Source: Aggregatilineales bacterium
GTDB taxonomy: Bacteria > Chloroflexota > Anaerolineae > Aggregatilineales > UBA2796
DNA length: 64,000 nt
Direction of reading: 5' to 3'
Assembly: GCA_038239365.1 (NCBI GenBank)
Contig: JBBSEU010000001.1
Coordinates: 9,688 to 73,687, forward strand
Position 1 is the first letter of the stretch; every line of letters starts with the position of its first letter. A program made the translations under genes and the position numbers. Positions 4,346 through 64,000 of the stretch are shown in pieces. Under the pieces are notes generated by a model. That model searched no databases. It was given only the letters and a program-made list of their open reading frames with translations, and was not told where the DNA came from.

Positions 4346-4395
4346 ACTCACCCGTCTTGTTAACCAATTGCGAAGGTTTAGATGGCACGATTGAA

Positions 4396-4884: not shown

Positions 4885-5125
4885 TGCACTACCTTCATGG
4901 CTATTCAAGAAGCGTTATTTCGTCGTATTTTATCACGAGATAGAGCTTTTCGTAGCGCGTTTCGGCAGCCCGATATGTTTGGATATTGATACTTTTCTGT
5001 AATGAAAAGCTACCATATTTAGTACCCTGGTCTCATTGTGTGACCCCCCAAAAACCGGGATACTGAAGATTGTAAAGAAAGCATTGTGTCTTTACGGTTC
5101 GACAACGCACAGGAGAGGATGGCCC

Positions 5126-7171: not shown

Positions 7172-7198
7172 GCTTTAAGTCACCAACAGCCTGATAGA

Positions 7199-7235
7199 GC
7201 AGCCGAACTGTTTACGGCTCGGCTGCCTGTTTTTG
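7199..7235 (+). terminator. Candidate rho-independent terminator after the beta-helix gene
   Basis: GCAGCCGA (7199..7206) pairs with TCGGCTGC (7219..7226), followed by CTGTTTTTG. Overlaps the last codons of the convergent minus-strand gene. Confidence 0.4.
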
Positions 7236-9877: not shown

Positions 9878-11008
9878 TTAGGCGGGAAGCGTCGATTTCT
9901 TTTGAACTTCGCCCGTTTCCAGCAAATTCTGGTAAATCGTGCTAAAGGCTTCGGTGAAAACATCCAGGCTGTAGAGTTGTGAACGTTCTTTGCCCTTCTC
10001 ACCCATCTGCCGACGGAGTGTTTCATCGCCAAGCAGGGTGCAGATATGAGCGGCCATCGCGTCATCATCACCGATAGGGACAACGAAGCCCGTCACGCCG
10101 TTCAGAACCAGTTCGCGGCAGCCCCCACTATCGGTCACGACACAGGGCAGCCCGGAAGCCATCGCTTCGATGATGGCGTTGGGTGAGCCTTCCACGCGGG
10201 AAGTCAGGATAAACATACTCATCGCCTTGAGCAAATCAGGCACATCGCGGCGTTCACCAATAAGCTGAACGACATCCGTTACCCCCAACTCATCGCGCAA
10301 TGCTTCCACCACTGGCCGCAACGGCCCTTCCCCCACAAAAACAAAGCGCGCATCCGGGTACTTTTTGACCACTTGCGCTGCAACCCGGATGAAGTTTTCC
10401 GGGCTTTTGTTGTTGGTCAGGTGGGCAACCGTCCCGATAATCGGCTTACCGCGCCATGTTTCCGGCAGCGGCCAGTTACCGGTTACGCTGCCCAGAAACT
10501 TATTGATATCCAGTCCGTTGAACACAACCCCGGCTTGTTGAGGGCGTATCATGTGGTGTGCCAGCATGTAATCGCGGGCGATATAGGAATTGGCGATAAC
10601 GGCTTTCACATCACGATTTAAGAATGGCAGCAGATTTTGGTACCATTGTGGGTGATATGTCGGGTGATTGCCTTCGTTGACAATGAAGCGGGTGTTTCTT
10701 GCCAGCATCACAGCAAGTCTGCCGTACAGACCGCTAACGCTATCCAGAAACAAATGCGTGATGTCCGGCTTGAGTGTGCGGATCAGGTGGTGGACTTGCC
10801 GCAAACGCTGTACCTCAAGGCGATGGTGGCGCTCTAACTCGATAACCTGATAACCAAGCTGGCGGATCGGTTCAGCCCAGTAGCCACCGGGTGAGAAGGA
10901 GACAACAGTGGCGCGCGGGTGAAGGCGTGCCAACAGATGATAAAGCTGCTGTTCAGCGCCACCCCGATCCAGTTGTCCAATCAAGTAGAGTACGGAATAA
11001 TCATTCAT
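9878..11008 (-). CDS. Glycosyltransferase, GT4-like
   Basis: ATG start. LYLIGQLDRGGAEQQ N-terminus and SRVEGSPNAIIEAMASGLPCVVTDSGG (E-x7-E). Confidence 0.85.
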   Translation of the reverse strand: MNDYSVLYLIGQLDRGGAEQQLYHLLARLHPRATVVSFSPGGYWAEPIRQLGYQVIELERHHRLEVQRLRQVHHLIRTLKPDITHLFLDSVSGLYGRLAVMLARNTRFIVNEGNHPTYHPQWYQNLLPFLNRDVKAVIANSYIARDYMLAHHMIRPQQAGVVFNGLDINKFLGSVTGNWPLPETWRGKPIIGTVAHLTNNKSPENFIRVAAQVVKKYPDARFVFVGEGPLRPVVEALRDELGVTDVVQLIGERRDVPDLLKAMSMFILTSRVEGSPNAIIEAMASGLPCVVTDSGGCRELVLNGVTGFVVPIGDDDAMAAHICTLLGDETLRRQMGEKGKERSQLYSLDVFTEAFSTIYQNLLETGEVQKKSTLPA

Positions 11009-11109
11009 AGGTAAACCGTGTGGTCAATCCTTTTGTGTATACTATGTAGTCGGACGAGTAGATTTTCGACGAACCTTGCTCAGTTAGAACATTGCAAAAA
11101 GGGAGAAGC

Positions 11110-12174
11110 ATGCCCACCTATTCACCATCTCAGCGCGTGAACAGCTTCGATGCAGCGGACACGCCGCAGCAATTGCGTCAGGTTAGTGTCGTGATGCCAA
11201 TCCGCAACGAGGCAAATACGATCAGCCGCTGCCTTGAAGCCGTGTTGAACCAGGATTATCCCCATAGCGACATGGAAGTATTCGTCATTGACGGCATGTC
11301 TACCGATAATACCAGAGATATTATTGCCTCTGTCGCCAGTCGATACCCGGATGTGTCGGTGACGATTCTGGATAATCCGCGTCAAATTGTAGCACCGGGA
11401 CTGAATGCCGCCCTCGATCAAGTCAATGGCGACATCATTGTTCGCATTGATGGACATTGTGAAATCGATCCCGATTACATTTCGCGCTGCGTGGCCTACC
11501 TGCAAACAGGTGACATCGACGGTGTAGGGGGGCCTATCCAGACCATCGGAAAAACCCCCCTCAGCGAAACGATTGCGCTGGGGATGAGTTCCAAGTTTGG
11601 TGTCGGAGGTTCGGCCTTCCGCACCGTCACTGATAAGGCGATGATCGTTGACACCGTCGCTTTTCCGGCTTACACCCGCCGCATTGTTGAGCAAGCGGGC
11701 AAGTTCGATGAAGAATTGGTTCGCAACCAGGATGATGAGTACAACTACCGCATTCGCGCGCTGGGCGGCACGATATTTCTGGCTCCTGATATTCACTCCC
11801 GTTACCACAGTCGCGGTACGCTCCCTTCGTTGTGGCGGCAGTATTTCCAATATGGCTATTGGAAAGTGCGTGTCATGCAGAAACATCCACGACAGATGAG
11901 CCTTCGCCAGTTTGTGCCACCCACGTTCGTCGGTGTTTTGCTGGTGAGTGGTCTCCTGTCCCCGTTCAACCGAACGATGCGCCGTTTAGGTTTTGGCGTC
12001 GCGCTGCTGTATGCGGCGGCAAATCTTGGTGCCTCAATATGGACTGCGAATAAACATGGCCGCCAACATCTGGCGCGTTTGCCAGCCGTGTTCGCGGCAC
12101 TACACGTGAGCTATGGATTAGGATTTTTGGTGGGACTGGCTCGGTTTGCCAACCGCTGGCGGGAGCGGCGCTGA
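11110..12174 (+). CDS. Glycosyltransferase family 2 with C-terminal TM segments
   Basis: ORF track 11092..12174 (TTG), ATG at 11110 after GGGAG. VSVVMPIRNEANTISRCLEAVLNQDYP...VIDGMSTDNT is a GT-A/GT2 signature. One of only two plus-strand genes inside the glycan locus. Confidence 0.85.
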   Translation: MPTYSPSQRVNSFDAADTPQQLRQVSVVMPIRNEANTISRCLEAVLNQDYPHSDMEVFVIDGMSTDNTRDIIASVASRYPDVSVTILDNPRQIVAPGLNAALDQVNGDIIVRIDGHCEIDPDYISRCVAYLQTGDIDGVGGPIQTIGKTPLSETIALGMSSKFGVGGSAFRTVTDKAMIVDTVAFPAYTRRIVEQAGKFDEELVRNQDDEYNYRIRALGGTIFLAPDIHSRYHSRGTLPSLWRQYFQYGYWKVRVMQKHPRQMSLRQFVPPTFVGVLLVSGLLSPFNRTMRRLGFGVALLYAAANLGASIWTANKHGRQHLARLPAVFAALHVSYGLGFLVGLARFANRWRERR

Positions 12175-12798
12175 AGCCAGTCCGCTGTCTGTTTCAGATT
12201 TGAACAACGCTTTGACCGTTTGCGACAAGATGCCAATGTCGCGCCAGACGGTCACGTTGTTCAGATACTCCAGGTCAATGGCAAGTTTGGCGGGCAGAAT
12301 CGAATGGATATAGCGATCTTCCCAGTCGGGGCCGGTGAGGAGCGCCTCCTCATGTCGGAAGCGGACACTTGCCAGACTGGTAATGCCGGGGCGCACTTCC
12401 AACAGTTTGCGTTGTTCCGGCGTATACAGTGCCACATAGCGCAAATCCTCTGGACGCGGACCGACCAGACTCATGGTGCCTGTCAGCACATCAAACAGTT
12501 GGGGTAGTTCATCGAGTTTCGTCCGACGCAGAATGCGCCCCACCGACGTGATACGTGGATCGTGCGATTTTGTGATGCCAGCCCCGATTTTATCCGCATT
12601 CACAACCATCGTTCGGAACTTATGGACTTTAATTTTGGCCCCATGTAACCCGGCACGAGTCGCCGCGTACAAAATAGGGCCGGGTGCTGTCAACTTGATC
12701 GCCAGAGCGATAATCAGCAGCACAGGTGACAAAATGAGCAGCACAACGGCGCTGACCACAATATCGAAAGCGCGTTTCAGGAGTCGCGGACGTGGCAT
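12118..12798 (-). CDS. Small monotopic phosphoglycosyl transferase (bacterial sugar transferase, PglC/WbaP-C-like)
   Basis: ATG start. N-terminal re-entrant helix AVVLLILSPVLLIIALAI. Signature KFRTM...DELPQLFDVLTGTMSLVGPRPE. Confidence 0.9.
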   Translation of the reverse strand: MPRPRLLKRAFDIVVSAVVLLILSPVLLIIALAIKLTAPGPILYAATRAGLHGAKIKVHKFRTMVVNADKIGAGITKSHDPRITSVGRILRRTKLDELPQLFDVLTGTMSLVGPRPEDLRYVALYTPEQRKLLEVRPGITSLASVRFRHEEALLTGPDWEDRYIHSILPAKLAIDLEYLNNVTVWRDIGILSQTVKALFKSETDSGLASAPLPPAVGKPSQSHQKS

Positions 12799-51982: not shown

Positions 51983-52395
51983 TGTCGCAAATCAGCAATG
52001 CCGCGCTCATCGAAAAGGCCGCCGCCGTCCTTAACCCGATCAAGCTGGCTGATCATTGGGTGGGCGATGTGGGCAGCGCACTCATCACCGATCAGGGCAA
52101 TATTTACCTGGGTGTGTGCATGGACATCAGTTCGGGCATTGGTTTTTGTGCCGAACATAGCGCCATCGCCGCGATGGTCACGGCAGGTGAATACCGGATC
52201 GAAAAGATCGTCGCCGTCTGGAAAGATGACAAAGGGCTTTACGTGCTATCTCCCTGTGGGCGCTGCCGAGAGTTCATCCGCCAGATTCACAAGGATAATT
52301 TGCAGACCGAAGTGATCTTAGACGTGGATAAAGTGGCGCGGCTGGCCGAACTGCTGCCCTACCACGATTGGTTTCATCCCCTGTCGAAGGGTTAA
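51982..52395 (+). CDS. Small cytidine/deoxycytidylate deaminase-fold protein (blasticidin-S-deaminase-sized)
   Basis: Zinc-ligand motifs CAEHSAI (C/H-A-E) and SPCGRCREF (PCxxC). ATG shares one base with the XRE stop (TGATG). Confidence 0.8.
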   Translation: MSQISNAALIEKAAAVLNPIKLADHWVGDVGSALITDQGNIYLGVCMDISSGIGFCAEHSAIAAMVTAGEYRIEKIVAVWKDDKGLYVLSPCGRCREFIRQIHKDNLQTEVILDVDKVARLAELLPYHDWFHPLSKG

Positions 52396-53375
52396 CCCCA
52401 CACAATTACCGTATTATCTTTGCTACCGGATGCGATCCGCGCGCCATCACTCGAAAACGCAATGCTATGCACCTTATCAGTGTGCCGCCGCAAGACCCCA
52501 ATCGGATAAGGGCGGCGGTCATCAATACGCCATAAACGGATCGTATGGTCACTTGAGGCAGACGCTAGTCGCAAGCCGTCCGGCGAAAAAGCCACGCATT
52601 GAACGCAGTCTTCATGCGCGCGGAGCGTGATCGGCACGGCATAGCGAAGCGTCGTCAGATCGTGTGGCAACAGCGATAAATCCCAGATTTTGACGGTGCC
52701 ATCATAACTGCCCGATGCCAGCCGCCGTCCGTCAGGTGAAAAGGCGGCACTCGTCACACCATCGGTATGGCTGCGAAGGGTCACCAACGGTGCGGTAGTT
52801 TGCCTGTTCAGGATAGCGCGCAAATCCCACAACAGCAGCGTATTATCCATGCTGGTCGAAATCAACCAGCGCGCGTTAGGTGATACTACCACCTGATAAA
52901 CATGACCGTTGTGCCCACTCAGAGCAATCGGCGGGCGCTGCGGCTTTTCCAGATCGATCAGCCGCACAACGTTGTCCGTGCCGCCGGAGATCAGCCAGCG
53001 TTCATCGGGAGTGAAGGTCACACTGTAGACCGCGCCCGAATGCGCTTCCAGTCCGAGTCGCAACCAGGCGGCCAGTCTGCGCCGAAGGGCAAGCTGCCAT
53101 AAGCGAACCCGGTGATCATTGCTGCCTGTCGCCAGCCAACTGTGTCGTGGCGAAAAAGTGACGCTGGAAACTGAACCCGCGTGCCCTTCGAGTGTTGAGT
53201 CAAGTCGCTCCGCCGATAAATCCCACAGTTTGACCGTGTTATCGTAGCTGCCAGAGGCCAGATAGCGAGGGTTTGCAGAAAGGCTTGCAAAGGCGACGCT
53301 GTACACCGTTTGAGTGTGGCCGCGTAGCGTCATGAGCGGCTCAAATTTCCCGGATCGGCTGAGTGGCGCAACCAT
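52392..53375 (-). CDS. Stand-alone seven-blade WD40 repeat protein
   Basis: Seven repeats ending VKLWDL, VRLWQL, VRLIDL, LLLWDL, VKIWDL, IRLWRI, VIVWG, each preceded by GH-type starts (LRGHTQTVYSVAF, LEGHAGSVSSVTF...). Confidence 0.85.
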   Translation of the reverse strand: MVAPLSRSGKFEPLMTLRGHTQTVYSVAFASLSANPRYLASGSYDNTVKLWDLSAERLDSTLEGHAGSVSSVTFSPRHSWLATGSNDHRVRLWQLALRRRLAAWLRLGLEAHSGAVYSVTFTPDERWLISGGTDNVVRLIDLEKPQRPPIALSGHNGHVYQVVVSPNARWLISTSMDNTLLLWDLRAILNRQTTAPLVTLRSHTDGVTSAAFSPDGRRLASGSYDGTVKIWDLSLLPHDLTTLRYAVPITLRAHEDCVQCVAFSPDGLRLASASSDHTIRLWRIDDRRPYPIGVLRRHTDKVHSIAFSSDGARIASGSKDNTVIVWG

Positions 53376-53405
53376 AAGCGTTTGCCTGATTCTAGTGAAT
53401 GTTAC

Positions 53406-54647
53406 CTAGCGTTCCGAAATCTCCGTTTCTGAGAGGAAATAGACGTGCATTCGCAGCCCACCCAACCGTATTTCATCGCCATTTTTAAGAGGATGCGGCT
53501 GATTCGGCATCAGCGAATAACCGTTAACAAAAGTGCCATTGGCGCTGTTGTTATCCTCGACCTCAACGTTTGCGCCAACGCGCCGTATCGTTGCATGGAC
53601 ACGTGAAACGCCTTTATCAAACGCCTGATATGACTCCAGATCAACATGCGCTTTGGCTGACTGCCCGGTAAGCTGCCGTCCGAGTGTCAACTGCGGCTGC
53701 ACCACCGCGGTCAATGGTTCGCGGAAATTATCAATAAATAACACAATCGTGTCTTTGCGCGTCTCTGCCGGGATGAAGTCGAGCCGGGCAGTACCCGTGA
53801 GTCGTTTGGTCTTCATCGACGGGTTAGCCGCTTCGCTGCTATAGACAAGCGTGCTGATCACCCGCGTCAGTTCTTTCCAATCGACGGGTTTTGCTATGAA
53901 AACATCTGCACCCGCTTCCATCGCACCACGAACCGATTCTTTATCGTTCAGGGCGCTCACCACAATAATCGGAATCGAGGGTAGCTGCGTATCACGGCGC
54001 ACGTAACGGCACAGTTCCAGGCCGCGAATGCCGGGCAGCATCAGATCAAGCATGATCGCGCTGGGTGTCAGATGATTGAGCGCACGAATGGCAGTAACCA
54101 GTTCGCGCGCCGACTGCACTACATAACCGCCGCGCTCTAAGGCCACACGAAACATTTCGGAGAGGTTTTGATCGTCCTCGACAACGAGTATGCGCTGTCC
54201 CGTGCCTTTGGTGGGCACACCTGCAAACGATAGTTCCTCACGCATAGCCAGGATACTGGTTTTGCGGGGGCGTGCCCGAAGGCTGATTTCCCCCTTCATA
54301 TGACCCAGGTACAGAATATCGCCCGTTGAGATACGGACGGGTTCGTTGGGGGTCAACACATCGCCATTCAGGACGCTGCCATTACCCGCGCCCAGGTCTT
54401 GATAGCTCAGTGACGTGCCATCATTCGTGACGATCCCATGTTTGCGCGAAACACCAAGCTCTACGCCGTTGTAGTCGGTCAGATCGACGCTGGGCATTTC
54501 GGCCTGACCGTTGGGGGTACGGCCTAGCAGCAGTTCATGTTCAACCGTGAAGTGAACCACCTGCGGCGGATCCTCGATCTTAAAATCAACGTCCCAATCC
54601 AGTTCCGCAGAAGCCGCTTTTTTGCCCTGCTCGATCTTACCGGACAT
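53406..54647 (-). CDS. FHA - receiver (REC) - FHA three-domain protein
   Basis: N-terminal FHA LLLGRTPNG...GVSRKHGIV...AGNGSVLNG. REC ILVVEDDQN...AIMLDLMLPG...IIVVSAL...FIAKP (acidic pocket, phospho-acceptor Asp, Ser/Thr and Lys all present). C-terminal FHA LTLGRQ...GVSRVHATI...SANGTFVNG...GDEIRL. Confidence 0.85.
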   Translation of the reverse strand: MSGKIEQGKKAASAELDWDVDFKIEDPPQVVHFTVEHELLLGRTPNGQAEMPSVDLTDYNGVELGVSRKHGIVTNDGTSLSYQDLGAGNGSVLNGDVLTPNEPVRISTGDILYLGHMKGEISLRARPRKTSILAMREELSFAGVPTKGTGQRILVVEDDQNLSEMFRVALERGGYVVQSARELVTAIRALNHLTPSAIMLDLMLPGIRGLELCRYVRRDTQLPSIPIIVVSALNDKESVRGAMEAGADVFIAKPVDWKELTRVISTLVYSSEAANPSMKTKRLTGTARLDFIPAETRKDTIVLFIDNFREPLTAVVQPQLTLGRQLTGQSAKAHVDLESYQAFDKGVSRVHATIRRVGANVEVEDNNSANGTFVNGYSLMPNQPHPLKNGDEIRLGGLRMHVYFLSETEISER

Positions 54648-56594
54648 TTATATAACCTTTATTGTGTGCAGGATAAACAGGCCGACAGCGGCGGCAATGA
54701 TCAACAGCACCAGTATCACGACGACCAGGATTATGGGGCTGCGTCCCTGTTTTTTCGGTTTTATGTCTTCGGGGCGCGGCGCGGCCATCATACCGGTGAG
54801 GCCGCTTCCGCCATCCAGCATATTGCGCTTGAGCGATGAACGCCGCATAAAATCCGTGCGATATTGTTCTTCCAACTGGCGGGCGGTGGTCGGCTGCGCG
54901 CCAGCCGCGCTGGGCGGCACAGACGCATATTTGCTAAAGTCGTATGGCTTCGATTCCGGCGGTGCGGATGGCTGCGCGCCTGGATAAGACGACATTGGCA
55001 TATCCGGCATGGTCTTGTCCATGCCGGGTGTCCCTGGCCGGGAGTAACCCGGTGTTTCCGGTTGGGGGCGTTGCGGGACATAGGGCGCTGAGTAGGGCGA
55101 ACTATCCGCCTTCGCATCATTGCGCTGTGCCGATGGTGATACATAGGGCGCAGCATAGGGCGGCTCTGGCGCACGCGCAGCAGGTGAAACGTAGGGCTGC
55201 TGATAGGGTTCTGGCTGCGGTGTGGGTGGTGGTGTTGGTGCCCCGCCGATAAATGTATCCAGTTCTGGTTCTTTTGCGGGCTGACGCAGTTGATCAACCG
55301 AAAACCCTTCGGGCATCGTCCGATCCATTGCCATTGGCTCAGGTTGCGGCGCACGAGTCGGTGGTGGCACGGGAGTCGGTGGTGGGGTTGGCGGCGCGGC
55401 AGCCTGACGTAATTGATCAACCGAAAACCCTTCAGGCATCGTCCGATCCATCGCCATTGGCGGCGGTTCAGGCGCACGAGCCGGTGGTGGCGCGGGAGTT
55501 GGTGGTGGGGTTAGCGGCGCGACAGCCTGACGTAATTGATCAACCGAAAACCCTTCGGGCATTGTGCGATCCATCGCCATTGGCGGCGGTTCTGGCGCAC
55601 GGGCTGGTGGTGGCGCGACAGCCTGACGTAATTGATCAACCGAAAACCCTTAGGGCATTGTGCGATCCATCGCCATTGGCGGCGGTTCTGGCGCGCGAAC
55701 AGGCGCGGCAAGTGGCGCTATTGACGGCGCTGACAGAGTACGGAGTGCCTCGGTCAGCGCGCCAATGTAATCGGCATACGATGAATAACGCTGCGATGCG
55801 TCTTTTGCCAGCCCGCGCGTGATGATCGGCGTCAGCACTGCCAACGATGGATCAATCACTGCCGGAGTCGGGATCGGCGCACCGGTGTGTTGAGCAATGA
55901 CCTGTTGCGGGGTGCTGGCTGTGTAGGGTGGCTGCCCCGTGACCATCTCGTAGAGCAGTGCGGTGAGCGAATACTGATCGGAAAGTGCCGTAATCGGTTG
56001 CCCGCGCACAACTTCGGGCGCGGCGTAATAGGCCAGCGAGAGATCATCAGTCAACGCTTTGGGAAGTCTCAAACCGATCAGTGGCGCAAATCCCACATCA
56101 CCTAACAGGGGACCCCGTTTGCTGCTGACCGTGATCGACAGCGGCGAAAGGCTGCCATGCAGCATCGCGTTTTGGGCGGCGTAAGCCAACGCTTCGGCCA
56201 AAATTTGCGTATATTCCAGGGCGGTGTTGAGCGCAATTCGCCCGTCTTCATCAAGTTTGCGGCGCAGCGTAGGCGATTTATGATATTCAGCGACGACGTA
56301 GAAGGTCTCGTTGTCGTTGCCGTAATCATATAGCTTGAGCAGGTACGGTGAATTAAAGCCGAGCAGTGTCTTGATCGTCTCCCGAAAGCGTACCTGAAAG
56401 CCGGGCTGTGCAGTCAGGGAAGGAGTCAGTATCTTGAGCGCGATCTTGAGTTTGACGGCTTCGTGGGACGCCAGATAAGTATCCAACACCGCATTCGAGG
56501 TCACCAGTTCGAGAACTGAATAGGTGATGGGCATGGTATCCACCATATGATGAACCGTCTGCCCAACAAGTGATCGCTTATCCTGATTCGCCAC
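54648..56594 (-). pseudogene. Kinase-like (predicted pseudokinase) protein with a 4x tandem repeat, Pro-rich region and C-terminal TM anchor. One in-frame TAA at 55652..55650 splits it into ORFs 55650..56594 and 54648..55580.
   Basis: Both ORFs share one frame. The stop sits where the other three repeat copies have GAA (MAMDRTMP-E-GFSVDQLRQ). The kinase fold is recognisable (IALKIL, RETIKTL, GDVGFA, AAPEV), but HRD is HGS and there is no Gly-rich loop. The C-terminus RSPIILVVVILVLLIIAAAVGLFIL is a TM helix. Could also be a sequencing error or two functional genes. Confidence 0.65.
55281..55700 (-). repeat. In-frame tandem coding repeat, 4 copies (periods 96, 123, 123 nt)
   Basis: Core CTGACG(T/C)A(A/G)TTGATCAACCGAAAACCCTT..GGCAT.GT.CGATCCAT.GCCATTGG recurs with the 18 aa cores at 55676..55623, 55580..55527, 55457..55404 and 55334..55281, encoding MAMDRTMPEGFSVDQLRQ plus Pro/Ala-rich spacers. 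Confidence 0.85.
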
Positions 56595-56630
56595 AGCCGT
56601 AATCCTCAGCCACTTGACACAATTGATTGA

Positions 56631-58946
56631 TTAGTAATCCAGATCAAACCTGAATTCGAGCGATCCGAGGCGGATCAGATCGCCATTTTTCAGGTGTTTG
56701 GGCACGTCGGGCAGCATTTTCACATTATTGACGAATGTTCCATTGCGGCTGGCCCGATCTGTGATGTAAAAACCGTCTTCGCCGATGCTAATCTCGGCAT
56801 GTCGCCGCCCAATCAGAACGGGTTCGCCATCCAGCAGCATATTCGCCAGATCAATATCCGGGAAGTAACCAATTTCCGGTATTGCTCGCCCGATCACCGT
56901 CTCCCGATCCTTGTTGATCGGGAACGACTTGCCGCCCGACTGCGTCCAGATCAGGTAGACGCGCATATCCATTCGCATTTGACGATGTGCATTATACAGC
57001 TTTTCTAAAAGACGGCGCGTGTCCGGGCTGATCAATCGCTGGCGGCTGGCACGTCGATCCGCGTCTGGTGTGGGGCGTCCGGGGTCACGAATACCTGACC
57101 AGCGTACTTTCAACTCCTGGATCGTTTCCATGATCTTATCGACGTTTTCCATCTGGATCACGCCGCCCTGTTCGGGGTTACGCTTGACGCGCCGATCCAA
57201 CTCGCTGAGCGTATCGCCCATCAGATACGAGATCACACGCTTGAACTCTTCGTCGCTTGCCAGATCATCGGAAGGCAGCAGAATATATTGACGTAGCATT
57301 TCCAGATCGCTGGCAACGCCGGGTTGCGGGTGGAAATCTTCGATACGAAGGCGATCTGTTGTGCGTTTGTCGCGGAAAAATTCGGCCAGATAAGGTTCGC
57401 CAGTCTTAGGATCAATGGGCGAGTCGAACTGCTCCACCTGTTTTTCATCAGCCGACATTTGCAGCCGGAACAACGGCACCACTTCGACTTGCAGCTTATC
57501 GGCTTCCATATCCGGCTCCATCGAGCGAATCCAGCCCAATTCGCTGATACGGCGGCCACCATCGGCCTGACGTTCGGCATGGATGACCAGTTGGAAAGCG
57601 TTGTAAATGTGCCCGACGATCTCCGCTTCATTCTGGACGCCCGCGTTGGACATACGTACCAGCGCCTGCAAACGGCTGACGGCGTACTGTGGGCCGCTGG
57701 AGTGAATTGTACAAATCGAGCCGTCATGCCCGGTGTTCAACGCCTGGAGCATATCCCATGCTTCCGCGCCGCGCACCTCACCCACGATGATCCGACGCGG
57801 TGAAAGGCGCAGCGAATTGATCACCAGATCGCGCATGGTGTAGCTGGTGCCTTCACGAGTGCTGGCTGTTTTGGTCAGCAGCGAAACGACGTTCTTTTCA
57901 TCCACATCCAAATTGCTGATGCGCGCCAAATCTTTAACGTCGATTTCGCCCGCGCCGTCGCCGTTTCGATCTCCGGTGAGCTGCAATTCCTGGGTGTCTT
58001 CAATGGTCACAACGCGCTCATGTGCCGGGATGAAACCCGCGATCACGTTGAGCAGAGTCGTTTTACCCGCGCCAGTGCCGCCCGTCACCAGAATATTGAA
58101 GCGCGAACGCACAACCAGCCCCAAAAGCGCCATCAGCCGCACATTGTACACGCCGCGCAAGAGCAAATCGCGCCAGTTCCATGTCCCGACGTGTTTACGA
58201 ATGGTGATGTACCACAGGCCATCGGCGGCAATCGGTGGGATCGTGATGTTGATACGGTGTTCGGTGTTGGGCAGCTTAGCATCGAGGATCGGGGAGTTTT
58301 CGTCAACGCGACGGTTGATCTCCGATAGGTTGCGGTAGACCACGTTTCGCAGGTGTTCGTGGCTGCGAAAGTGAATCGTTTCATCCACTGAGCCGAGGCG
58401 CGGACGCTTGCTGCGAACCTGTCGCACGCGGTCTTCGGCGCGCGTCTTGACCAACACCTGATTCCAGCCGATCACGTAAATATCTTCGGCCATCTCGTCT
58501 TCATTATCGCGCTCGTAGTCAGTAACCAGTTCTTCGAGCGGACCAAAACCAACCATATCGTCCAGGATTTCTTCTGACCAGGCCGTGATCGCGTTGCGGC
58601 GGCCTAACTCATCCTGAGCGCGCATCCGCTTGATCAGGTCAAGTGCGATGTGATCCAGTTCATCATCGTTGAGCAGTTCGACGCATGTTTTGCGGATGAT
58701 AGGGGTCAGCAGGCGGCGGCGTTCAGCCTTCGACATGGTCATTAACGAGGCGTCATCGGCAAAACCGGGCACGATCAAGCCTTTGAGTGGCGCTTTACGG
58801 ACAGCCTGGCCGCGCGGTTTGTAATCGATCATCGTGCCCATACGCGCCATTTGTGCCAGCCGCCGGGCTGCCGCACGTTTCAGTATTTCGACTTCGCTGT
58901 CTGTGTACGTGAGCGCCTGCTGCTCGGTTTGCTCCATGACTGCCAT
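56631..58946 (-). CDS. cpaF: CpaF/TadA-type secretion ATPase with long N-terminal extension and C-terminal FHA domain
   Basis: Walker [14 protein letters not shown], Asp box [12 protein letters not shown], Walker [14 protein letters not shown], His box [13 protein letters not shown]. Residues ~680-771 carry VIGRA...IGRRHAEI...[10 protein letters not shown]...GDLIRLG (FHA). 771 aa in total. Confidence 0.9.
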
Positions 58947-58998
58947 TAAAAATTTTCCCTGTCTAAACGCCCATGTTGAAAGCTGATAATATTATAGC

Positions 58999-59997
58999 TC
59001 ATGGCGTCAGTGGAATGTTAGCGACAAACAAGCCGACACTGGCAAGCAGCGTCAGCATCAAGGCCAGCACAAGCAGCGATTGAGGATAAACAATCGTAAC
59101 GCGCGCCGTGGAGGCCGCTTGTTCCGCCGCTTTGAGTCGTCCATTACGCACGCGATCCACGATTTCGGGCAGGGTATCGCGCAGTGAACTACCCACTTCC
59201 TGGGAGAGCGTGACGGCCTGTGTCAGTTCGTCCCAGAGCGTGACCGCCGCATCGCTGAACTCGTTTTCGTCGCCTTCTTTACGCATGGTGGCGCGCAATC
59301 CCAACGAATCCATAAAATCGGCACGGGAGACGCCCATATTACGTTCAAACAAGGCTTGTGCCAGTTCGATTCCAAGTGGATATTGATCGGGCTTGAGCAG
59401 ATAGCGATCATAAATCGTGCGCCCCGCCGTTTCAAGCGCCTGATCGAACTCTGCCCCGGCGCGCATCGTGATCGCCATCAGCTCCAGTAGGTCGGCCAAT
59501 TGCAGTAGAAGGCGCTGTTTGCGCTGCTCAACGCGGCGCTTGAGGGCAATTGTCGGGAAGCGCCAACCCAGAAAGCCCAGCCCCAACGACAGAACAACCG
59601 CCACGCTCAGGACAAAATCAGCGGGTGCAGGTGGATTTTCCAGATTTTGTTTGGCCTGAACGGTCATACCAGGCAGACTCGCGTCGGTGAAAGTGGGCAC
59701 TTCGGACAGCCAGCCCGCCGCTGAACAGGCCAGAAAAATCCCCAGCACCGCCCCCGCCCCTTGCAGCCAACGGTAACGCCAGGGAGTGGCTCGGAATGGA
59801 TCGTTCAAATAGGACAGCCGCTGCTCCATTTCCGCATCCTGGCGGCGGCGTAATGCTGTCGGCATCAAAAAGACGATGAGCGCGGCGGGCACGCGCCCCA
59901 ACAGCCCGAACGCGCGGCGACGTGGCCGTGAGTTCCACAACCCGGTAGCGAATAAGACCATCAAAATGACCGTCGCAAACATTCCGTACTGACCCAT
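58999..59997 (-). CDS. Type II secretion system F-family membrane protein (TadC-like)
   Basis: Position after the tadB-like gene. N-terminal TM, cytoplasmic helical domain (LLLQLADLLELMAITMRAGAEFDQALE), C-terminal TM pair. Confidence 0.75.
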   Translation of the reverse strand: MGQYGMFATVILMVLFATGLWNSRPRRRAFGLLGRVPAALIVFLMPTALRRRQDAEMEQRLSYLNDPFRATPWRYRWLQGAGAVLGIFLACSAAGWLSEVPTFTDASLPGMTVQAKQNLENPPAPADFVLSVAVVLSLGLGFLGWRFPTIALKRRVEQRKQRLLLQLADLLELMAITMRAGAEFDQALETAGRTIYDRYLLKPDQYPLGIELAQALFERNMGVSRADFMDSLGLRATMRKEGDENEFSDAAVTLWDELTQAVTLSQEVGSSLRDTLPEIVDRVRNGRLKAAEQAASTARVTIVYPQSLLVLALMLTLLASVGLFVANIPLTP

Positions 59998-60008
59998 AAT
60001 GATCCCTG

Positions 60009-60920
60009 CTACACGTCCGTCGAATTAATCTGAATGATCCAATATACGCTGATGCCAATGGCGGTGAAGGCCAGGATCAATACAAAACGCCCAAAATAGG
60101 TACCATACAGCAGCCCACTGAATAATGGAAAAGCCGTCAGGCCAAGAAATAGCCCAACGATGATCACCACGAGCGACGTGGCGGCCTGCCTTCCCGGAGC
60201 AAGCTGCGTGCGAATTTCGCGCTCAGTGGCTTCGCGCTGATGCAGCAGTCGGGATAAATCATTGAGCAGTTCACCCAGATCGCCGCCCAATGGTCGTACT
60301 ACCGAAATGGTGAGCGCCGCCTGATCGAGTGCGTCACTTTGATACAGTGGGTTTTGCGCGATCTCAGCCAGAGCTTCGTCAATCGAGATCAGGCCGCCGC
60401 TTGCCACCATTTTAATCAGTGCATCGCCAAATTCCTGGCTGATCGGCTTGCCAAACTGAGTCGCCACGCGCTGAACGGCGGCTTCGACAGAGTGCCCGGC
60501 GGCGATCTCGTCACCCATAATGCCCAGGGCTTCGGGCAGCAAGCGCGCCATATTCTTTTGGGCAGCGCGATTGTAGAGCGAGTTGCCCACCAGGATCGCA
60601 AAGATGACGCCAATGACGCCGAACAGCAGCAGGAAGACAAGTCCGAAGCGCAATGAATCATCACCCGAACCGGCCAACAATGTCGAGACCAGCACAGCCA
60701 CGACTCCAAACCCGATCCAAAACGATCCGGCGGTCAGGTGTGTGCCGCGCGTGAGTTCCAGATAATCGGCAACTCGTTCCATCGAGGCGGCAATGCGTTG
60801 ATACAGACCGGGCTTGCCGTTGGCAGTTCGCAGCAACACCACGTTCAAGCCATCGATCATGCGGCGCAGCAAGCCAAGTCGCCACACGATATACAGCGCG
60901 ATTAGCTCTACAACCAGCAC
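60009..60920 (-). CDS. Type II secretion system F-family membrane protein (TadB-like)
   Basis: GTG start. LPEALGIMGDEIAAGHSVEAAVQRV...LGGDLGELLNDLSRLL helical domain flanked by TM helices. Confidence 0.75.
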   Translation of the reverse strand: MLVVELIALYIVWRLGLLRRMIDGLNVVLLRTANGKPGLYQRIAASMERVADYLELTRGTHLTAGSFWIGFGVVAVLVSTLLAGSGDDSLRFGLVFLLLFGVIGVIFAILVGNSLYNRAAQKNMARLLPEALGIMGDEIAAGHSVEAAVQRVATQFGKPISQEFGDALIKMVASGGLISIDEALAEIAQNPLYQSDALDQAALTISVVRPLGGDLGELLNDLSRLLHQREATEREIRTQLAPGRQAATSLVVIIVGLFLGLTAFPLFSGLLYGTYFGRFVLILAFTAIGISVYWIIQINSTDV

Positions 60921-60938
60921 GCTCTAGACTCCATTTCT

Positions 60939-61697
60939 TTAAAAGAACTTGGTGATTAGATTTAGCGTATCAACATCATCCGCTTTGTCAACACACCAGC
61001 CTGTCAGTTTGGCACTGGCATAGTAGACCTGCCACCAGCGCAGCCCATTGGCGAAGACCGGGCCGCCGACAATGACCGCCGTCTTGCCATTCGGGATGAT
61101 GAAATACGTATCGCCTTTCAAGCCGGGCTTACGACGGATGTTCAGGCTGTCGCCCGCTGTCGTCCGAATGCGAACGAAATCCCCATAGTGAAAATCGAAG
61201 GGCGGCGGTTGGGGCAGCGCAAAACGCATCGGCTCATGTTCGATCATCACGATAGAGCGCGAACCTAACGGCACATTCAAGGCGATGCCGGGTCCGGCCA
61301 TCGGGATTTGCGCCACGATCTCGACACTCAGGCGCGTCCCGATCTTGCGCTGTTTGGCATCTATCGGATCGAATTTGATCTTGATTTTGTTGCTGCAACC
61401 GTCGTTTTGCAGCGTGCAGTGTTCCGGGTCAGTGCAGCCGTCGGCAACCAGACTGCACGCTTCCTTGAGGATGCGTTCAATCTCATCGTTGCTGTTGGTC
61501 ATCGCGCCCCACTGCGCCGCCCGCGCCACGATGTCGATCACCTGCTGCTGCAAGAAAATAGCGCGAATGACGATCACGCCGCCGCCCATCGTGGACATGA
61601 TCAGCATGATCACGAGTGCGAACTCAACCAGTGCCTGACCGCGCCGAGATCGTTGTGCCAGACCGCGCCAACGCCGGAAAACACGAGGCAGGATCAT
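60939..61697 (-). CDS. TadE-like pseudopilin with Cys-rich insert and C-terminal bacterial SH3 domain
   Basis: N-terminus RRGQALVEFALVIMLIMSTMGGG (TadE/class III signal pattern). CSLVADGCTDPEHCTLQNDGC. C-terminal GDFVRIRTTAGDSLNIRRKPGL...GLRWWQVYY...LTGWCVD is SH3b-like. Confidence 0.75.
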   Translation of the reverse strand: MILPRVFRRWRGLAQRSRRGQALVEFALVIMLIMSTMGGGVIVIRAIFLQQQVIDIVARAAQWGAMTNSNDEIERILKEACSLVADGCTDPEHCTLQNDGCSNKIKIKFDPIDAKQRKIGTRLSVEIVAQIPMAGPGIALNVPLGSRSIVMIEHEPMRFALPQPPPFDFHYGDFVRIRTTAGDSLNIRRKPGLKGDTYFIIPNGKTAVIVGGPVFANGLRWWQVYYASAKLTGWCVDKADDVDTLNLITKFF

Positions 61698-61698
61698 C

Positions 61699-62226
61699 TT
61701 AGAAAAACTCCCGTGTTGGTGCTGCCGTGACGCGCGGCTCCATCCGTGCTGTTGCCTTCGTGCCGAGCCGTACCGTCAGGTCTGGCAAAAACGGGCCGAC
61801 AAGCTGCATATCGTAGGTCACTTCGACGCTCACCGGGTTATCCGGGATATTGTTCGGATCGAGTAGTGCCGCCGGGTCAGGTGTAATCGTGGACGGTGCT
61901 TTGCCTGTGACGGGGATCGGTGTGGGCGTCACATAACGTTTGAAGACTGGCTTTTCGGGCGTAAAAACCACGCGCAAACGGGCTGCATTGACTCCCGGCA
62001 AATTGTCCAGCACAAGCTGACGCGCCACCGTCGTATCGCCAGTCAATGCAACGGCGCGCACGGCGATATCCGCCGCGTTGTTGACCGAGTACCAGGTGTT
62101 GAGGATCAACAACATCCGCACAATCGACAGGATCAAAATGAGCAGCACGGGCAGCAGCACCGCGAACTCGACGAGCGATTGTCCAGGCCGGATGCGCCGA
62201 AATAAACTGGGAAAACTTAGGAACAT
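61699..62226 (-). CDS. TadE-like pseudopilin
   Basis: ORF track to 62331. ATG at 62226 gives MFLSFPSLFRRIRPGQSLVEFAVLLPVLLILILSIV (TadE N-terminal motif). Confidence 0.75.
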   Translation of the reverse strand: MFLSFPSLFRRIRPGQSLVEFAVLLPVLLILILSIVRMLLILNTWYSVNNAADIAVRAVALTGDTTVARQLVLDNLPGVNAARLRVVFTPEKPVFKRYVTPTPIPVTGKAPSTITPDPAALLDPNNIPDNPVSVEVTYDMQLVGPFLPDLTVRLGTKATARMEPRVTAAPTREFF

Positions 62227-62276: not shown

Positions 62277-62296
62277 GATCGATCAAGGTGTTTAAT

Positions 62297-63010
62297 ATGC
62301 AGCAAAACAAATCAACGCGCGTGCTGATCATTGAAGATCAGGTCAAAATTTCTCACTGGCTAAGCACATTTCTGCAACAGGCGGGCTTCGAAGTGCTTTC
62401 GGCGGCCAACGGCGCGCACGGTCTGGCACTGGCACGCACTGAACAACCGGACGTGATCGTTCTGGATTTGATGCTGCCCGATATGGATGGCCTGGATGTG
62501 TGCCGCGCTATTCGACGTAACTCCGATGTATTCATTATTATGCTGACAGCGCGCGTTGAAGAAACGGATCGGCTGATCGGGTTGGAGATGGGCGCGGATG
62601 ATTATGTCACCAAGCCGTTCAGTCCGCGCGAAGTGGTTGCCCGCATTCGGGCGCTGCTGCGGCGTGCCAATGGTGGATTGGCGACGGGTACGGTCACAGC
62701 GAAGCCGCTGGTGTGTGGGGCGCTCACACTCGATCCGACGCGCCGAACCTGCACATTGGCTGATCAGTCGATCTCACTGACGCCGACGGAATTTTCGATC
62801 CTGGAAACGATGATGCGACAGCCGGGTATTCCCTTCACGCGCGAACGGCTCATCTCTGAGGCACTTGGCTACGATTATGCGGGTTACGAACGGACGATTG
62901 ACGTTCACATTCGCAATTTGCGGCGCAAACTCGAAGACGATCCGCAAAATCCACATTTTATCCTGACCGTGTTCGGCGTTGGCTATCGGTTTGCGGAGGA
63001 TAGGCCATGA
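62297..63010 (+). CDS. OmpR/PhoB-family response regulator
   Basis: ORF track 62288 (GTG), ATG at 62297. VLIIEDQ, VIVLDLMLPDMDG, IIMLTAR, YVTKPF. Winged helix LTPTEFSILETMM...GVGYRF. Confidence 0.9.
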   Translation: MQQNKSTRVLIIEDQVKISHWLSTFLQQAGFEVLSAANGAHGLALARTEQPDVIVLDLMLPDMDGLDVCRAIRRNSDVFIIMLTARVEETDRLIGLEMGADDYVTKPFSPREVVARIRALLRRANGGLATGTVTAKPLVCGALTLDPTRRTCTLADQSISLTPTEFSILETMMRQPGIPFTRERLISEALGYDYAGYERTIDVHIRNLRRKLEDDPQNPHFILTVFGVGYRFAEDRP

Positions 63011-64000
63011 ACTTCTGGCGCAGTCGATTACGCTGGCAACTGATGCTCAGCTATTTACCGTTAATCGTCGTGCCGGTGCTGCTGATCGGGTTGGTGACTT
63101 CACGGTTGGCCGAACAGGGTTTGACGCTAATCATTACGCAGGGGGCACAGCACAAAGCAAGCGAACAGGCCACGCAATTCGCGCAATATTATGCTGACCA
63201 CGGCTCCTGGGATGGCGTTTCGCAGCTTTTTGTGATCCCGCAGCGCCCGCCCTGGCTGCCGATTCTCAGGCCGCTTGACCCGGACAAACCCAGAGGTGAA
63301 GGCCCCGGTTTTGGTGAACTGTTCTCACCGGAGCAGCTTCTGATCACCGATCTGAACGGCACGGTGATTGCCAGCGACAGTAATAAAGGTTTGGGACAAT
63401 CTCTGGCGGAAGGGGCACTGCGGCGCGGCGCACCGATCATCGTCAAGGGTAAGCAGATCGGGACGCTGGTCATTGGCGCGGCGTTCGGGCTGCTCGATCA
63501 GCAGCAGCGCCAACTACTGGATGCGGTGAATACGGCGCTGGTTTTATCGGGGTTTGTTTCCGTCGTACTGGCGATTGTTTTGGGGCTGTGGTTGTCGTGG
63601 CAGATCACGCGGCCAGCGCAGCAGTTGATGATCGGCGTGCGGCGACTCTCGCAAGGGGAGTGGACAGAGCCGTTGGAAGTGCAATCCAACAATGAATTTG
63701 GTGATCTGACGCGCGCCTTCAACACAATGGCAAGCGAAGTGACTCGCCAGCAGCAGCTTCGCCGCCAAATGGTGGCTGATGTGGCACACGACTTGCGAAC
63801 GCCGCTCAGTGCCATGACCTTAGAGATCGAAGCAATTGAAGCAGGCTTTCAGACGCCCGAAGAAGCAACGGCCAGTTTACGTGAGGAAGTTAACTGGTTA
63901 CAGCAGCTTGTGGATGACCTGCGAACGCTGTCACTGATGGATGCCGATCAGGTGCAGTTACAGCCGATTGTCACGCCGCTCTATCCGTTTTTGTGCAGCG
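63007..64000 (+). CDS. Sensor histidine kinase, partial (runs off the right edge)
   Basis: Not in the ORF track (no stop). ATG at 63007 overlaps the regulator stop (ATGA). TM1 LMLSYLPLIVVPVLLIGLV, periplasmic segment, TM2 LVLSGFVSVVLAIVLGLWL, HAMP (RPAQQLMIGVRRLSQGEW...FGDLTRAFNTMASEV), H-box MVADVAHDLRTPLSAM. Confidence 0.85.
   Translation, partial: MNFWRSRLRWQLMLSYLPLIVVPVLLIGLVTSRLAEQGLTLIITQGAQHKASEQATQFAQYYADHGSWDGVSQLFVIPQRPPWLPILRPLDPDKPRGEGPGFGELFSPEQLLITDLNGTVIASDSNKGLGQSLAEGALRRGAPIIVKGKQIGTLVIGAAFGLLDQQQRQLLDAVNTALVLSGFVSVVLAIVLGLWLSWQITRPAQQLMIGVRRLSQGEWTEPLEVQSNNEFGDLTRAFNTMASEVTRQQQLRRQMVADVAHDLRTPLSAMTLEIEAIEAGFQTPEEATASLREEVNWLQQLVDDLRTLSLMDADQVQLQPIVTPLYPFLCS

Follow-up and report, generated by a model that had tools for sequence, protein, structure and literature searches.

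The 64,000-nucleotide stretch of DNA analysed here (hereafter the window) derives from an Aggregatilineales bacterium of the Chloroflexota (NCBI GenBank assembly GCA_038239365.1, contig JBBSEU010000001.1, positions 9,688 to 73,687 of the forward strand). On its minus strand, between positions 52392 and 62331, it carries a row of genes in which the parts of a Tad-like machine are joined to phospho-signalling and scaffold modules. The row encodes, in this order, two TadE proteins, TadB, TadC, a motor ATPase fused to an FHA domain, a kinase-like protein, an FHA-REC-FHA protein, and a WD40 protein, with intergenic gaps of 0-52 nt. These assignments were made with Pfam and NCBIfam, whereby the Pfam scan covered 59 open reading frames (ORFs) of the window, which are all but three short ones of the ORF list. 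An earlier note on this DNA had described eight co-directional genes at this place; the gene types, coordinates, and gaps were confirmed by Pfam, but the row comprises nine ORFs instead of eight. The same note had asked for a profile-based annotation, and both Pfam and NCBIfam support all of the gene types it had listed. The individual features are as follows.

61699-62226, minus strand: TadE-like minor (pseudo)pilin 1 (Pfam TadE 1.2e-9; NCBIfam TadE_Rv3655c 8e-5; signal RPG/QSLVEF)
60939-61697, minus strand: TadE-like minor pilin 2 (Pfam TadE 1.4e-3, under the gathering score; signal RRG/QALVEF)
60009-60920, minus strand: TadB-like inner-membrane platform protein (Pfam T2SSF 1e-9)
58999-59997, minus strand: TadC-like inner-membrane platform protein (Pfam T2SSF 5e-5, 23.6 bits against a cut-off of 25.2)
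56631-58946, minus strand: CpaF/TadA-type motor ATPase, 771 aa (Pfam T2SSE 4.7e-36 and C-terminal FHA 3.4e-14)
55650-56594, minus strand: predicted pseudokinase domain (Pfam Pkinase 1.2e-21)
55650-55652, minus strand: in-frame TAA splitting the pseudokinase gene (read directly from the sequence)
55281-55694, minus strand: tandem DNA repeat (Tandem Repeats Finder), encoding DRTMPEGFSVDQLRQ units
54648-55580, minus strand: C-terminal part of the pseudokinase gene with tandem DRTMPE repeats, a 310-aa ORF in the same frame as the kinase ORF
53406-54647, minus strand: FHA-REC-FHA adaptor (Pfam)
52392-53375, minus strand: stand-alone seven-blade WD40 beta-propeller (Pfam WD40 1.6e-83, seven repeats)

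The ORF of the first TadE-like protein is open up to 62331, and its likely start is the ATG at 62226. Both TadE proteins show, in a motif scan, a class III signal of the form G/XXXXEF (G/QSLVEF and G/QALVEF) followed by a hydrophobic helix, and six-frame scans of the window for such signals returned these two proteins only. TadE-like 2 is 28% identical to the second TadE of a distant relative (L014) and has an additional C-terminal domain of about 90 aa. The earlier note had called this domain an SH3b domain. While the presence of an extra domain is correct, its assignment as SH3b stays weak because the match to SH3_3 (E=0.004, 17.7 bits) lies under the cut-off of 27, the single-sequence AlphaFold (AF2) model of the protein is unusable (predicted local distance difference test, pLDDT, 40.6), and a PDB sequence search with the domain gave no matches. 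Orthologues of TadB with 69-70% identity are found in L008/L009 and L012, and those of TadC (69-71% identical) are located 3' of TadB in L008 and L012; paired T2SSF platform proteins corresponding to TadB and TadC thus occur in L012, L008, and also in L014. Of the components by which a Tad system is recognized, a hexameric CpaF/TadA-family ATPase, TadB together with TadC, and TadE/TadF-type minor pilins with a G/XXXXE[YF] signal are present in the row.

In the motor ATPase, the FHA domain occupies residues 684-761 of 771 and follows the ATPase core and a helical extension, whereas no Pfam domain and no FHA was detected in the N-terminal 199 aa. The Walker A motif, the Walker B motif with its Glu, the Asp box, and the His box are invariant across the orthologues, and the enzyme looks catalytically competent. 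Its AF2 model (pLDDT 78) gave TadA/CpaF structures as best Foldseek matches (8rjf, 8rkd, and 9e24, E 2.5e-28 to 2.8e-27), with archaeal GspE/FlaI and VirB11 ranking behind them, and its best NCBIfam match is a TadA-family model, under the equivalog cut-off of that model. Pfam, NCBIfam, and Foldseek hence bear out the CpaF-type ATPase with a C-terminal FHA domain that the earlier note had described. Relatives of this ATPase fall into ten further 90%-identity clusters, one of which is named Aggregatilineales. They are 73-88% identical to the window protein, all have about 770 aa, and all combine T2SSE with FHA; beyond these clusters the identity falls sharply to 41%. The relative at 41% identity (L014) has no FHA domain but has much of the C-terminal extension in common. 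Gly-Arg, Ser-x-x-His, and Asn-Gly are the residues by which FHA domains contact phosphothreonine, and in the ATPase FHA these predicted phosphate-binding residues are canonical in 10 of the 11 orthologues.

Downstream of the ATPase gene lies the kinase ORF, followed by the ninth ORF (54648-55580). The latter encodes 310 aa, is proline-rich, ends in a transmembrane helix, and has no Pfam match. It is in frame with the kinase ORF and begins at an internal Met, and only the TAA at 55650-55652 divides the two. This codon sits in the first copy of a repeat whose other copies read GAA (Glu) at the same place; the tandem repeat at 55281-55694 has periods of 96 and 123 nt, and its copies are 90-98% identical. 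As far as can be read from the DNA, the kinase ORF and the ninth ORF are one ancestral gene of about 648 codons. Since every intact orthologue is a single uninterrupted protein (518-875 aa), the gene of the window is regarded as interrupted. The 310-aa tail is 44% identical to the tail of L010, the closest relative.

The degenerate catalytic motifs mentioned in the earlier note were confirmed and can be specified by alignment to PknB. The window protein has no Gly loop, and HGSLSPLS stands in place of HRDVKPAN. This replacement removes the catalytic Asp together with the loop Lys and the Asn that binds Mg, while the Lys of VAIK, the Glu of alpha-C, and the Asp of DFG are retained. The change from HRDxKxxN to HG[SLI]L[STA]P was observed in 10 of the 11 family proteins checked; L010 did not match in this search, in which it was assessed by pattern only. 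A word-indexed homologue search with the kinase domain returned just two orthologue clusters, which reflects the sensitivity limit of that method, and a full HMMER search found at least seven more full-length members in separate 50%-identity clusters. Because the dead HRD loop recurs across the family, the protein appears to be a maintained pseudokinase and not a decaying kinase. By homology, it is a pseudokinase of PknB-like Hanks descent, with an NCBIfam PknB_PASTA_kin match (1.6e-40) that is far under the cut-off. Membership of the EssB/YukC family was considered and rejected, as the domain matches only Pkinase and PK_Tyr_Ser-Thr in Pfam and groups with PknB-like kinases in both Pfam and NCBIfam.

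The pseudokinases share a common layout consisting of the kinase domain, a proline-rich linker, a basic stretch, and a single transmembrane helix at the extreme C-terminus; the protein is thus predicted to be tail-anchored and to have no ectodomain. No Pfam domain was found in the proline-rich tail. Instead, it contains copies of a threonine motif, [DG][RK]-T-M-[PA]-[ED]-M-[PS], whose core is formed by Asp/Gly at position -2, Arg/Lys at -1, an invariant Thr, Met at +1, Pro/Ala at +2, and Glu/Asp at +3; Met-Pro or Met-Ser often trails the core, and the flanks vary by lineage. Peptides of the type pT-x-x-[D/E] are among the classical FHA ligands, as for Rad53 FHA1. The pattern T-[MI]-x-[ED] occurs 5-9 times per protein, as compared to 0.1-0.3 expected from composition-preserving shuffles (maximum of 3 in 2000), and the reconstructed window gene has five T-M-x-[E/D] motifs, the first of which is interrupted by the stop. 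Among four near-identical strains (L002, L003, L004, and L019), pseudokinases of 518, 556, and 594 aa occur, which are one 38-aa unit apart. The copy number of the threonine-motif array is, judging from these proteins, polymorphic on short time scales.

The next gene encodes the FHA-REC-FHA protein. Across 116 sequences of its family, the acidic pocket, the phospho-acceptor Asp, the Ser/Thr, and the Lys of the receiver are invariant, and so are the phosphothreonine-binding positions of the second FHA domain (FHA2); those of the first (FHA1) are about 81% conserved. In the window protein, both FHA domains are canonical at Gly-Arg, Ser-x-x-His, and Asn-Gly. The family, with 383 matches across Anaerolineae and other Chloroflexota, is far broader than that of the ATPase-FHA, and the protein is better seen as a general adaptor that has been placed beside one client in the Aggregatilineales lineage. 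TadZ/CpaE proteins combine an atypical receiver with a ParA/MinD ATPase. The suggestion of the earlier note that the receiver protein substitutes for TadZ did not hold, and we do not consider it a TadZ analogue because its receiver is of the canonical, phosphorylatable kind, it has no ParA/MinD domain, and it belongs to a broad family whose members often stand alone. At the end of the row, the seven-blade WD40 protein of the earlier note was found as described, with seven repeats at 1.6e-83 in Pfam. Its orthologues in L001 (15591-16541, 66% identical) and L010 (9291-10220, 80% identical) take the same position as in the window. The Pfam column of these two genes is empty despite clear orthology, and an empty field should here not be read as absence of the domain.

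To what extent the row is conserved was assessed in seven ATPase lineages including that of the window, whose neighbourhoods were mapped by tblastn. A contig scan with TadB gave one locus, and a metagenome scan with the ATPase gave four loci. The gene orders are the following.

Window: TadE-TadE-TadB-TadC-ATPase-kinase (split)-FHA-REC-FHA-WD40
L010 (ATPase 88% identical): ATPase-kinase-FHA-REC-FHA-WD40
L001/L020: ATPase-kinase-FHA-REC-FHA-WD40
L005/L006: ATPase-kinase-FHA-REC-FHA
L007: ATPase-kinase
L002-4/L019/L021: ATPase-kinase
L008/L009: TadB-TadC-ATPase, no kinase

The pseudokinase gene is located immediately 3' of the ATPase-FHA gene in six of the seven lineages, the FHA-REC-FHA gene is next in four, and the WD40 gene is present in three. 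The linkage of the signalling genes to the ATPase that the earlier note expected to be conserved was therefore found, but the link of the ATPase to TadB/TadC turned out to be the least conserved one (two lineages). In the metagenome-assembled genome (MAG) of L007, TadB-TadC orthologues (69%) lie on another contig with no ATPase downstream, the upstream side being cut by the contig end, which fits a motor and a platform that cooperate though encoded apart. A 69-aa ORF upstream of the L007 ATPase was examined as a pilin and rejected. In L008, two DUF3160 proteins (555 and 193 aa, 4956-7254) are found where the window has its TadE genes. The 41%-identical relative L014 has the order TadE-TadE-TadG-TadB-TadC-ATPase, with no FHA, kinase, flp, or tadV nearby.

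A different arrangement was observed in a Caldilineaceae MAG (L013, JAXLWB010000005.1), where two Pkinase genes, one with an intact HLDIKPDN loop, lie beside a complete Tad locus in a cluster that also comprises a PP2C phosphatase, a large FHA protein, and an OmpR/histidine-kinase pair. This cluster indicates that Ser/Thr signalling genes are located beside Tad genes in at least one other Chloroflexota lineage. The order of genes before the ATPase is Pkinase, FHA, Pkinase, PP2C, OmpR-type response regulator, histidine kinase, and A24 peptidase. The L013 Tad ATPase itself (10001-12442, 813 aa) consists of two complete CpaF modules fused in tandem, each of which aligns to the window ATPase at 34-38% identity. 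It is followed by TadB/TadC, two Flp-like ORFs of 75 and 65 aa, a 470-aa protein with a pilin-type N-terminus, and RcpC.

We propose that the row of the window is an operon for a Tad-like (type IVc-like) pilus or pseudopilus specific to this lineage, whose FHA-bearing motor is phospho-linked to a dedicated membrane pseudokinase, and consider the chances of this reading to be even. A phosphothreonine-based link between motor and pseudokinase is plausible from the conserved residues and motifs of the two proteins. In such a system, an unlinked active Hanks-type kinase would phosphorylate the motif threonines, turning the array into a multivalent docking strip under the membrane. This strip could then be bound by the FHA domains of the motor, six per hexamer, and by the two of the adaptor; the binding would recruit, hold, or release the motor at the TadB/TadC platform. 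The canonical receiver of the adaptor would bring in histidine-kinase input, and the WD40 propeller might offer a further scaffold surface. The major pilin and the prepilin peptidase would be encoded elsewhere, since both TadE proteins keep a G/XXXXEF processing site. A more specific version of the model sees the array as a tunable, multivalent 'phospho-Velcro' that captures or releases the whole motor under the input of an unlinked Ser/Thr kinase and phosphatase and, by way of the adaptor, of a histidine kinase, which would be a control mode that has not been described so far. For this version, which we advance tentatively and rate as rather less probable than its negation, the 5-9 motif copies come near the number of FHA domains in a CpaF hexamer (six), and the variation of the repeat copy number among near-identical strains could tune the threshold.

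Several observations weigh against this interpretation. In the 64-kb window, no Flp pilin was found by six-frame motif scans or by tblastn with the L013 Flp-like ORFs, and no A24 prepilin peptidase (TadV/CpaA) by Pfam or by tblastn with the L013 A24 protein. Pfam likewise revealed no active Ser/Thr kinase and no PP2C phosphatase encoded in the window. In just two of the seven lineages do TadB/TadC adjoin the ATPase, and at 60%, 48%, and 41% identity the FHA-REC-FHA gene stands alone among unrelated neighbours and may serve many targets. The window's own pseudokinase gene contains a nonsense codon, and its ATPase FHA reads IGRRH where all ten other orthologue clusters have ISRxH, so that the phosphate-contacting Ser is replaced by Gly; because of these two changes, the phospho-link may be weakened or rewired in this genome. 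All relatives are metagenome assemblies, and whatever goes beyond domain content and synteny, that is phosphorylation, binding, and the filament, we infer. RcpC/CpaB, a secretin, and TadZ/CpaE were not detected in the window, neither by Pfam nor by tblastn with the Caldilineaceae Tad locus. The statement of the earlier note that Flp, peptidase, secretin, CpaB, and TadZ are missing from the window is accordingly upheld by Pfam, the signal-motif scan, and tblastn. As the 41%-identical L014 has no flp and tadV nearby either, their absence in cis seems to be a property of the clade and not of the window. The phosphothreonine-gated Tad-like system that the earlier note had postulated is supported in part: the linkage of the signalling genes, the FHA residues, and the threonine motifs fit, but the tie to TadB/TadC is its least conserved part.

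In its CpaF/TadA ATPase, TadB, TadC, and TadE pilins, the row resembles Tad/Flp (type IVc) pili, including those of Chloroflexus, Roseiflexus, and Litorilinea. The row has no secretin, as is expected of a monoderm-like envelope and is common to Chloroflexota Tad systems. It is unlike Tad/Flp pili in that Flp, TadV, TadZ, and RcpC are not encoded in cis in the window, and in that the row includes genes for a pseudokinase, an FHA-REC-FHA protein, and a WD40 protein. Chloroflexota Tad loci have been said to carry rcpC-tadZABC or tadZ and flp, and FHA domains or kinases go unmentioned for the documented Chloroflexota Tad pili (bioRxiv 10.1101/2025.08.19.671072). The closest precedents for a Tad motor fused to FHA come from elsewhere. 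Class III CpaF proteins, mostly from betaproteobacteria, have an N-terminal FHA domain (PMC12019362), and for Myxococcus KilF and the FHA-rich Kil Tad-like clusters an upstream phospho-signalling cascade has been proposed (PMC8460266). In both cases the FHA is N-terminal, whereas here it is C-terminal after a helical extension, in a Chloroflexota host and in a row with no secretin. The class III arrangement, in which the N-terminal FHA is joined to a three-helix bundle and the N-terminal domain via a disordered region, is not that of the window ATPase. A tail-anchored pseudokinase with threonine repeats as found here has not been reported for class III CpaF or Kil. A literature search for a C-terminal FHA on a pilus ATPase returned nothing relevant.

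The combination of an FHA-bearing motor and a membrane-anchored kinase-fold scaffold is also known from type VII secretion systems (T7SS), in particular from EssC/YukB with EssB/YukC of T7SSb. E. coli does not encode a Hanks kinase. Upon expression in this host, the FHA domains of YukB co-purify with the pseudokinase domain of YukC, in a phosphate-free manner (PMC9600267). In the T7SSc-f variants, motors with FHA domains occur together with membrane kinases and PPM phosphatases (PMC11217815). The motor is of the FtsK/SpoIIIE type in T7SSb and PilT/VirB11-like here, and the pseudokinase here derives from PknB instead of the YukC family. Furthermore, the EssC FHA domains do not have the phosphothreonine-binding residues that the ATPase-FHA family keeps, and EssB has no threonine-repeat array but a central transmembrane helix and an extracellular domain, whereas here the helix is at the extreme C-terminus and no ectodomain is present. 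By analogy, the resemblance to EssB/YukC would thus be functional and architectural only. To say that the combination of the window has no precedent would be too strong, given that FHA-fused CpaF and Kil have been published and that an FHA motor with a membrane kinase or pseudokinase recurs in T7SSb-f.

A phospho-dependent version of the same principle is provided by the mycobacterial MviN, in which PknB phosphorylates a Thr in the pseudokinase tail and thereby recruits the FHA protein FhaA (PMC12599244). There too, a membrane-tethered pseudokinase is phosphorylated in trans and read by an FHA domain. MviN however has one phospho-site compared to the 5-9 repeats here, its target is a lipid II flippase, and it belongs to the ActPs3 family (VALT, no HRD/DFG). 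In a 2025 review of bacterial pseudokinase families, neither Chloroflexota nor pili are mentioned (PMC12599244). With the PpkA/PppA/Fha1 switch of the type VI secretion system (T6SS), to which the earlier note had likened the row, the proposed logic alone is shared, namely the FHA-mediated, phosphothreonine-dependent assembly of a membrane nanomachine. In the T6SS, PpkA is active and has a partner PP2C, and Fha1 is a separate protein, whereas here the kinase fold is dead, no phosphatase is linked, and the FHA is fused to the motor.

These comparisons frame the other explanations that have to be weighed. The pseudokinase could be a phosphorylation-independent scaffold, whose folded domain is bound by the motor FHA in the manner of EssC/YukB and EssB/YukC, with the repeats serving as spacer or as sites for the WD40 protein. 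The co-purification of YukB FHA with YukC from an E. coli host free of Hanks kinases is in favor of such a mode, as are the loss of the phosphate-contacting Ser from the window ATPase FHA and the fact that no kinase or phosphatase is encoded nearby. We nevertheless judge it unlikely, as the phosphothreonine-binding signature is, unlike in EssC, complete in 10 of the 11 ATPase orthologues and in both FHA domains of the adaptor, a Thr that never varies and is accompanied by Met at +1 and an acidic residue at +3 would be difficult to account for unless there is a Thr reader, and the pseudokinase descends from PknB and stands outside the YukC family. About as low a probability is given to the view that the module is decaying or an assembly artefact in the window genome, such that the pseudokinase gene would be a pseudogene, the FHA link dead, and the row a relic. 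Here the in-frame TAA in place of GAA in the repeats and the Ser-to-Gly change in the FHA, the latter confined to the window genome, are set against the remaining ORFs, which are intact and well conserved (ATPase 73-88% and WD40 80% identical). Also in favor of this view, the source is a metagenome-assembled contig. On the other side, the single G-to-T difference could be a sequencing or consensus error. Even if the stop is real, an in-frame Met 24 codons past it could give a tail-anchored protein next to a soluble pseudokinase domain, and the re-started protein would hold three full repeats and a degenerate copy.

It is improbable, in our estimation, that the ATPase-FHA, pseudokinase, adaptor, and WD40 protein make up a signalling or transport unit of their own, distinct from a pilus motor, whose adjacency to the tad genes is incidental. 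TadB/TadC orthologues of about 70% identity directly precede the ATPase in a second lineage (L008/L009), L014 keeps TadE-TadE-TadG-TadB-TadC-ATPase, and the TadB-TadC pair of the L007 MAG has no downstream ATPase (its upstream side being cut by the contig end); moreover, the intergenic gaps are short, and the ATPase groups with TadA/CpaF in fold and in sequence. Such a unit would on the other hand account for the five of seven lineages in which ATPase and pseudokinase are located among unrelated housekeeping genes with no TadB/TadC nearby, as well as for the absence of a Flp pilin and a prepilin peptidase from the window. Least credible is that the kinase-like protein is active in a non-canonical way and phosphorylates its own repeats, which would make it a self-contained kinase-FHA switch like PpkA-Fha1. 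Nucleotide binding is possible given that most orthologues keep the VAIK Lys, alpha-C Glu, and DFG Asp, but the window's copy has lost the Gly loop and, in the catalytic loop, the Asp, the Lys, and the Mg-binding Asn (with the HRD-loop change in 10 of 11 proteins checked), the L005 orthologue has lost the VAIK Lys as well, and there is no partner PP2C in the window.

Tad pili drive adhesion, biofilm formation, and contact-dependent killing. To our knowledge, it is largely unexplained how the single bifunctional motor of Tad systems is switched and localized, and we know of no ligand that has been identified for the FHA domains of CpaF or KilF. FHA-linked Tad motors are themselves already known from Myxococcus Kil and class III CpaF; what appears to be new is the C-terminal placement of the FHA, the dedicated tail-anchored pseudokinase derived from PknB, and the conserved multi-copy threonine motif of the latter. 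The repeated threonine motif on a pseudokinase encoded next to the motor gene is a concrete candidate ligand for a CpaF FHA domain. Should the 'phospho-Velcro' version of the model be correct, the two proteins would represent a so far undefined family in which motors of Tad-like machines of Chloroflexota are paired with receptors. A motor with an FHA domain beside a kinase-fold scaffold in the membrane, as known from type VII secretion, would with this row be extended to type IV filaments as a superfamily, and the parallel between T7SS and the Tad-like row suggests that monoderm-type envelopes have arrived at convergent solutions. As all members are from Aggregatilineales that have not been cultured, the practical value is limited for now.

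Turning to the surroundings of the row, the 3' side of the WD40 gene is occupied by unrelated housekeeping genes and ABC transporters. On the 5' side, the following gene pair was found.

62288-63999, plus strand: OmpR-type response regulator (62288-63010) and HAMP-HisKA histidine kinase (Pfam), the kinase running past the end of the window

This pair is divergent from the first tadE gene, and the response regulator ORF as listed overlaps with the longest ORF of that gene. A similar pair precedes the Tad genes in the Caldilineaceae L013, where the response regulator is only 34% identical to that of the window. The pair is a candidate regulator of the row and might also be a phosphate donor for the receiver of the adaptor. 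A promoter and terminator scan was uninformative, as the counts were near those of shuffled sequences and every listed site fell inside coding regions.

A large cluster for the biosynthesis of surface polysaccharides and nonulosonic acids extends from about 2000 to 34200, mostly on the minus strand. It encodes NeuB, two CMP-sugar cytidylyltransferases, two DegT aminotransferases, an N-formyltransferase, and several GT2/GT4 glycosyltransferases, as well as a pyruvyl transferase, Wzy_C, Bac_transf, Polysacc_synt_2, and a NusG-like antiterminator. At 2048-4351 on the minus strand, it includes a 767-aa Wzz-type polysaccharide co-polymerase with a ParA/CbiA-like P-loop and a BY-kinase/Wzc-like architecture. 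This protein, which has the only ParA-like P-loop of the window, was tried as a TadZ and rejected in view of its location in the polysaccharide cluster 48 kb away and its BY-kinase architecture. It ends in a canonical FHA domain (PF00498, 5.7e-17) that is 45% identical to FHA2 of the FHA-REC-FHA protein. As the window thus encodes a second nucleoside triphosphatase of a membrane machine with a C-terminal FHA domain, the FHA gating of envelope machines may be a theme in this genome.

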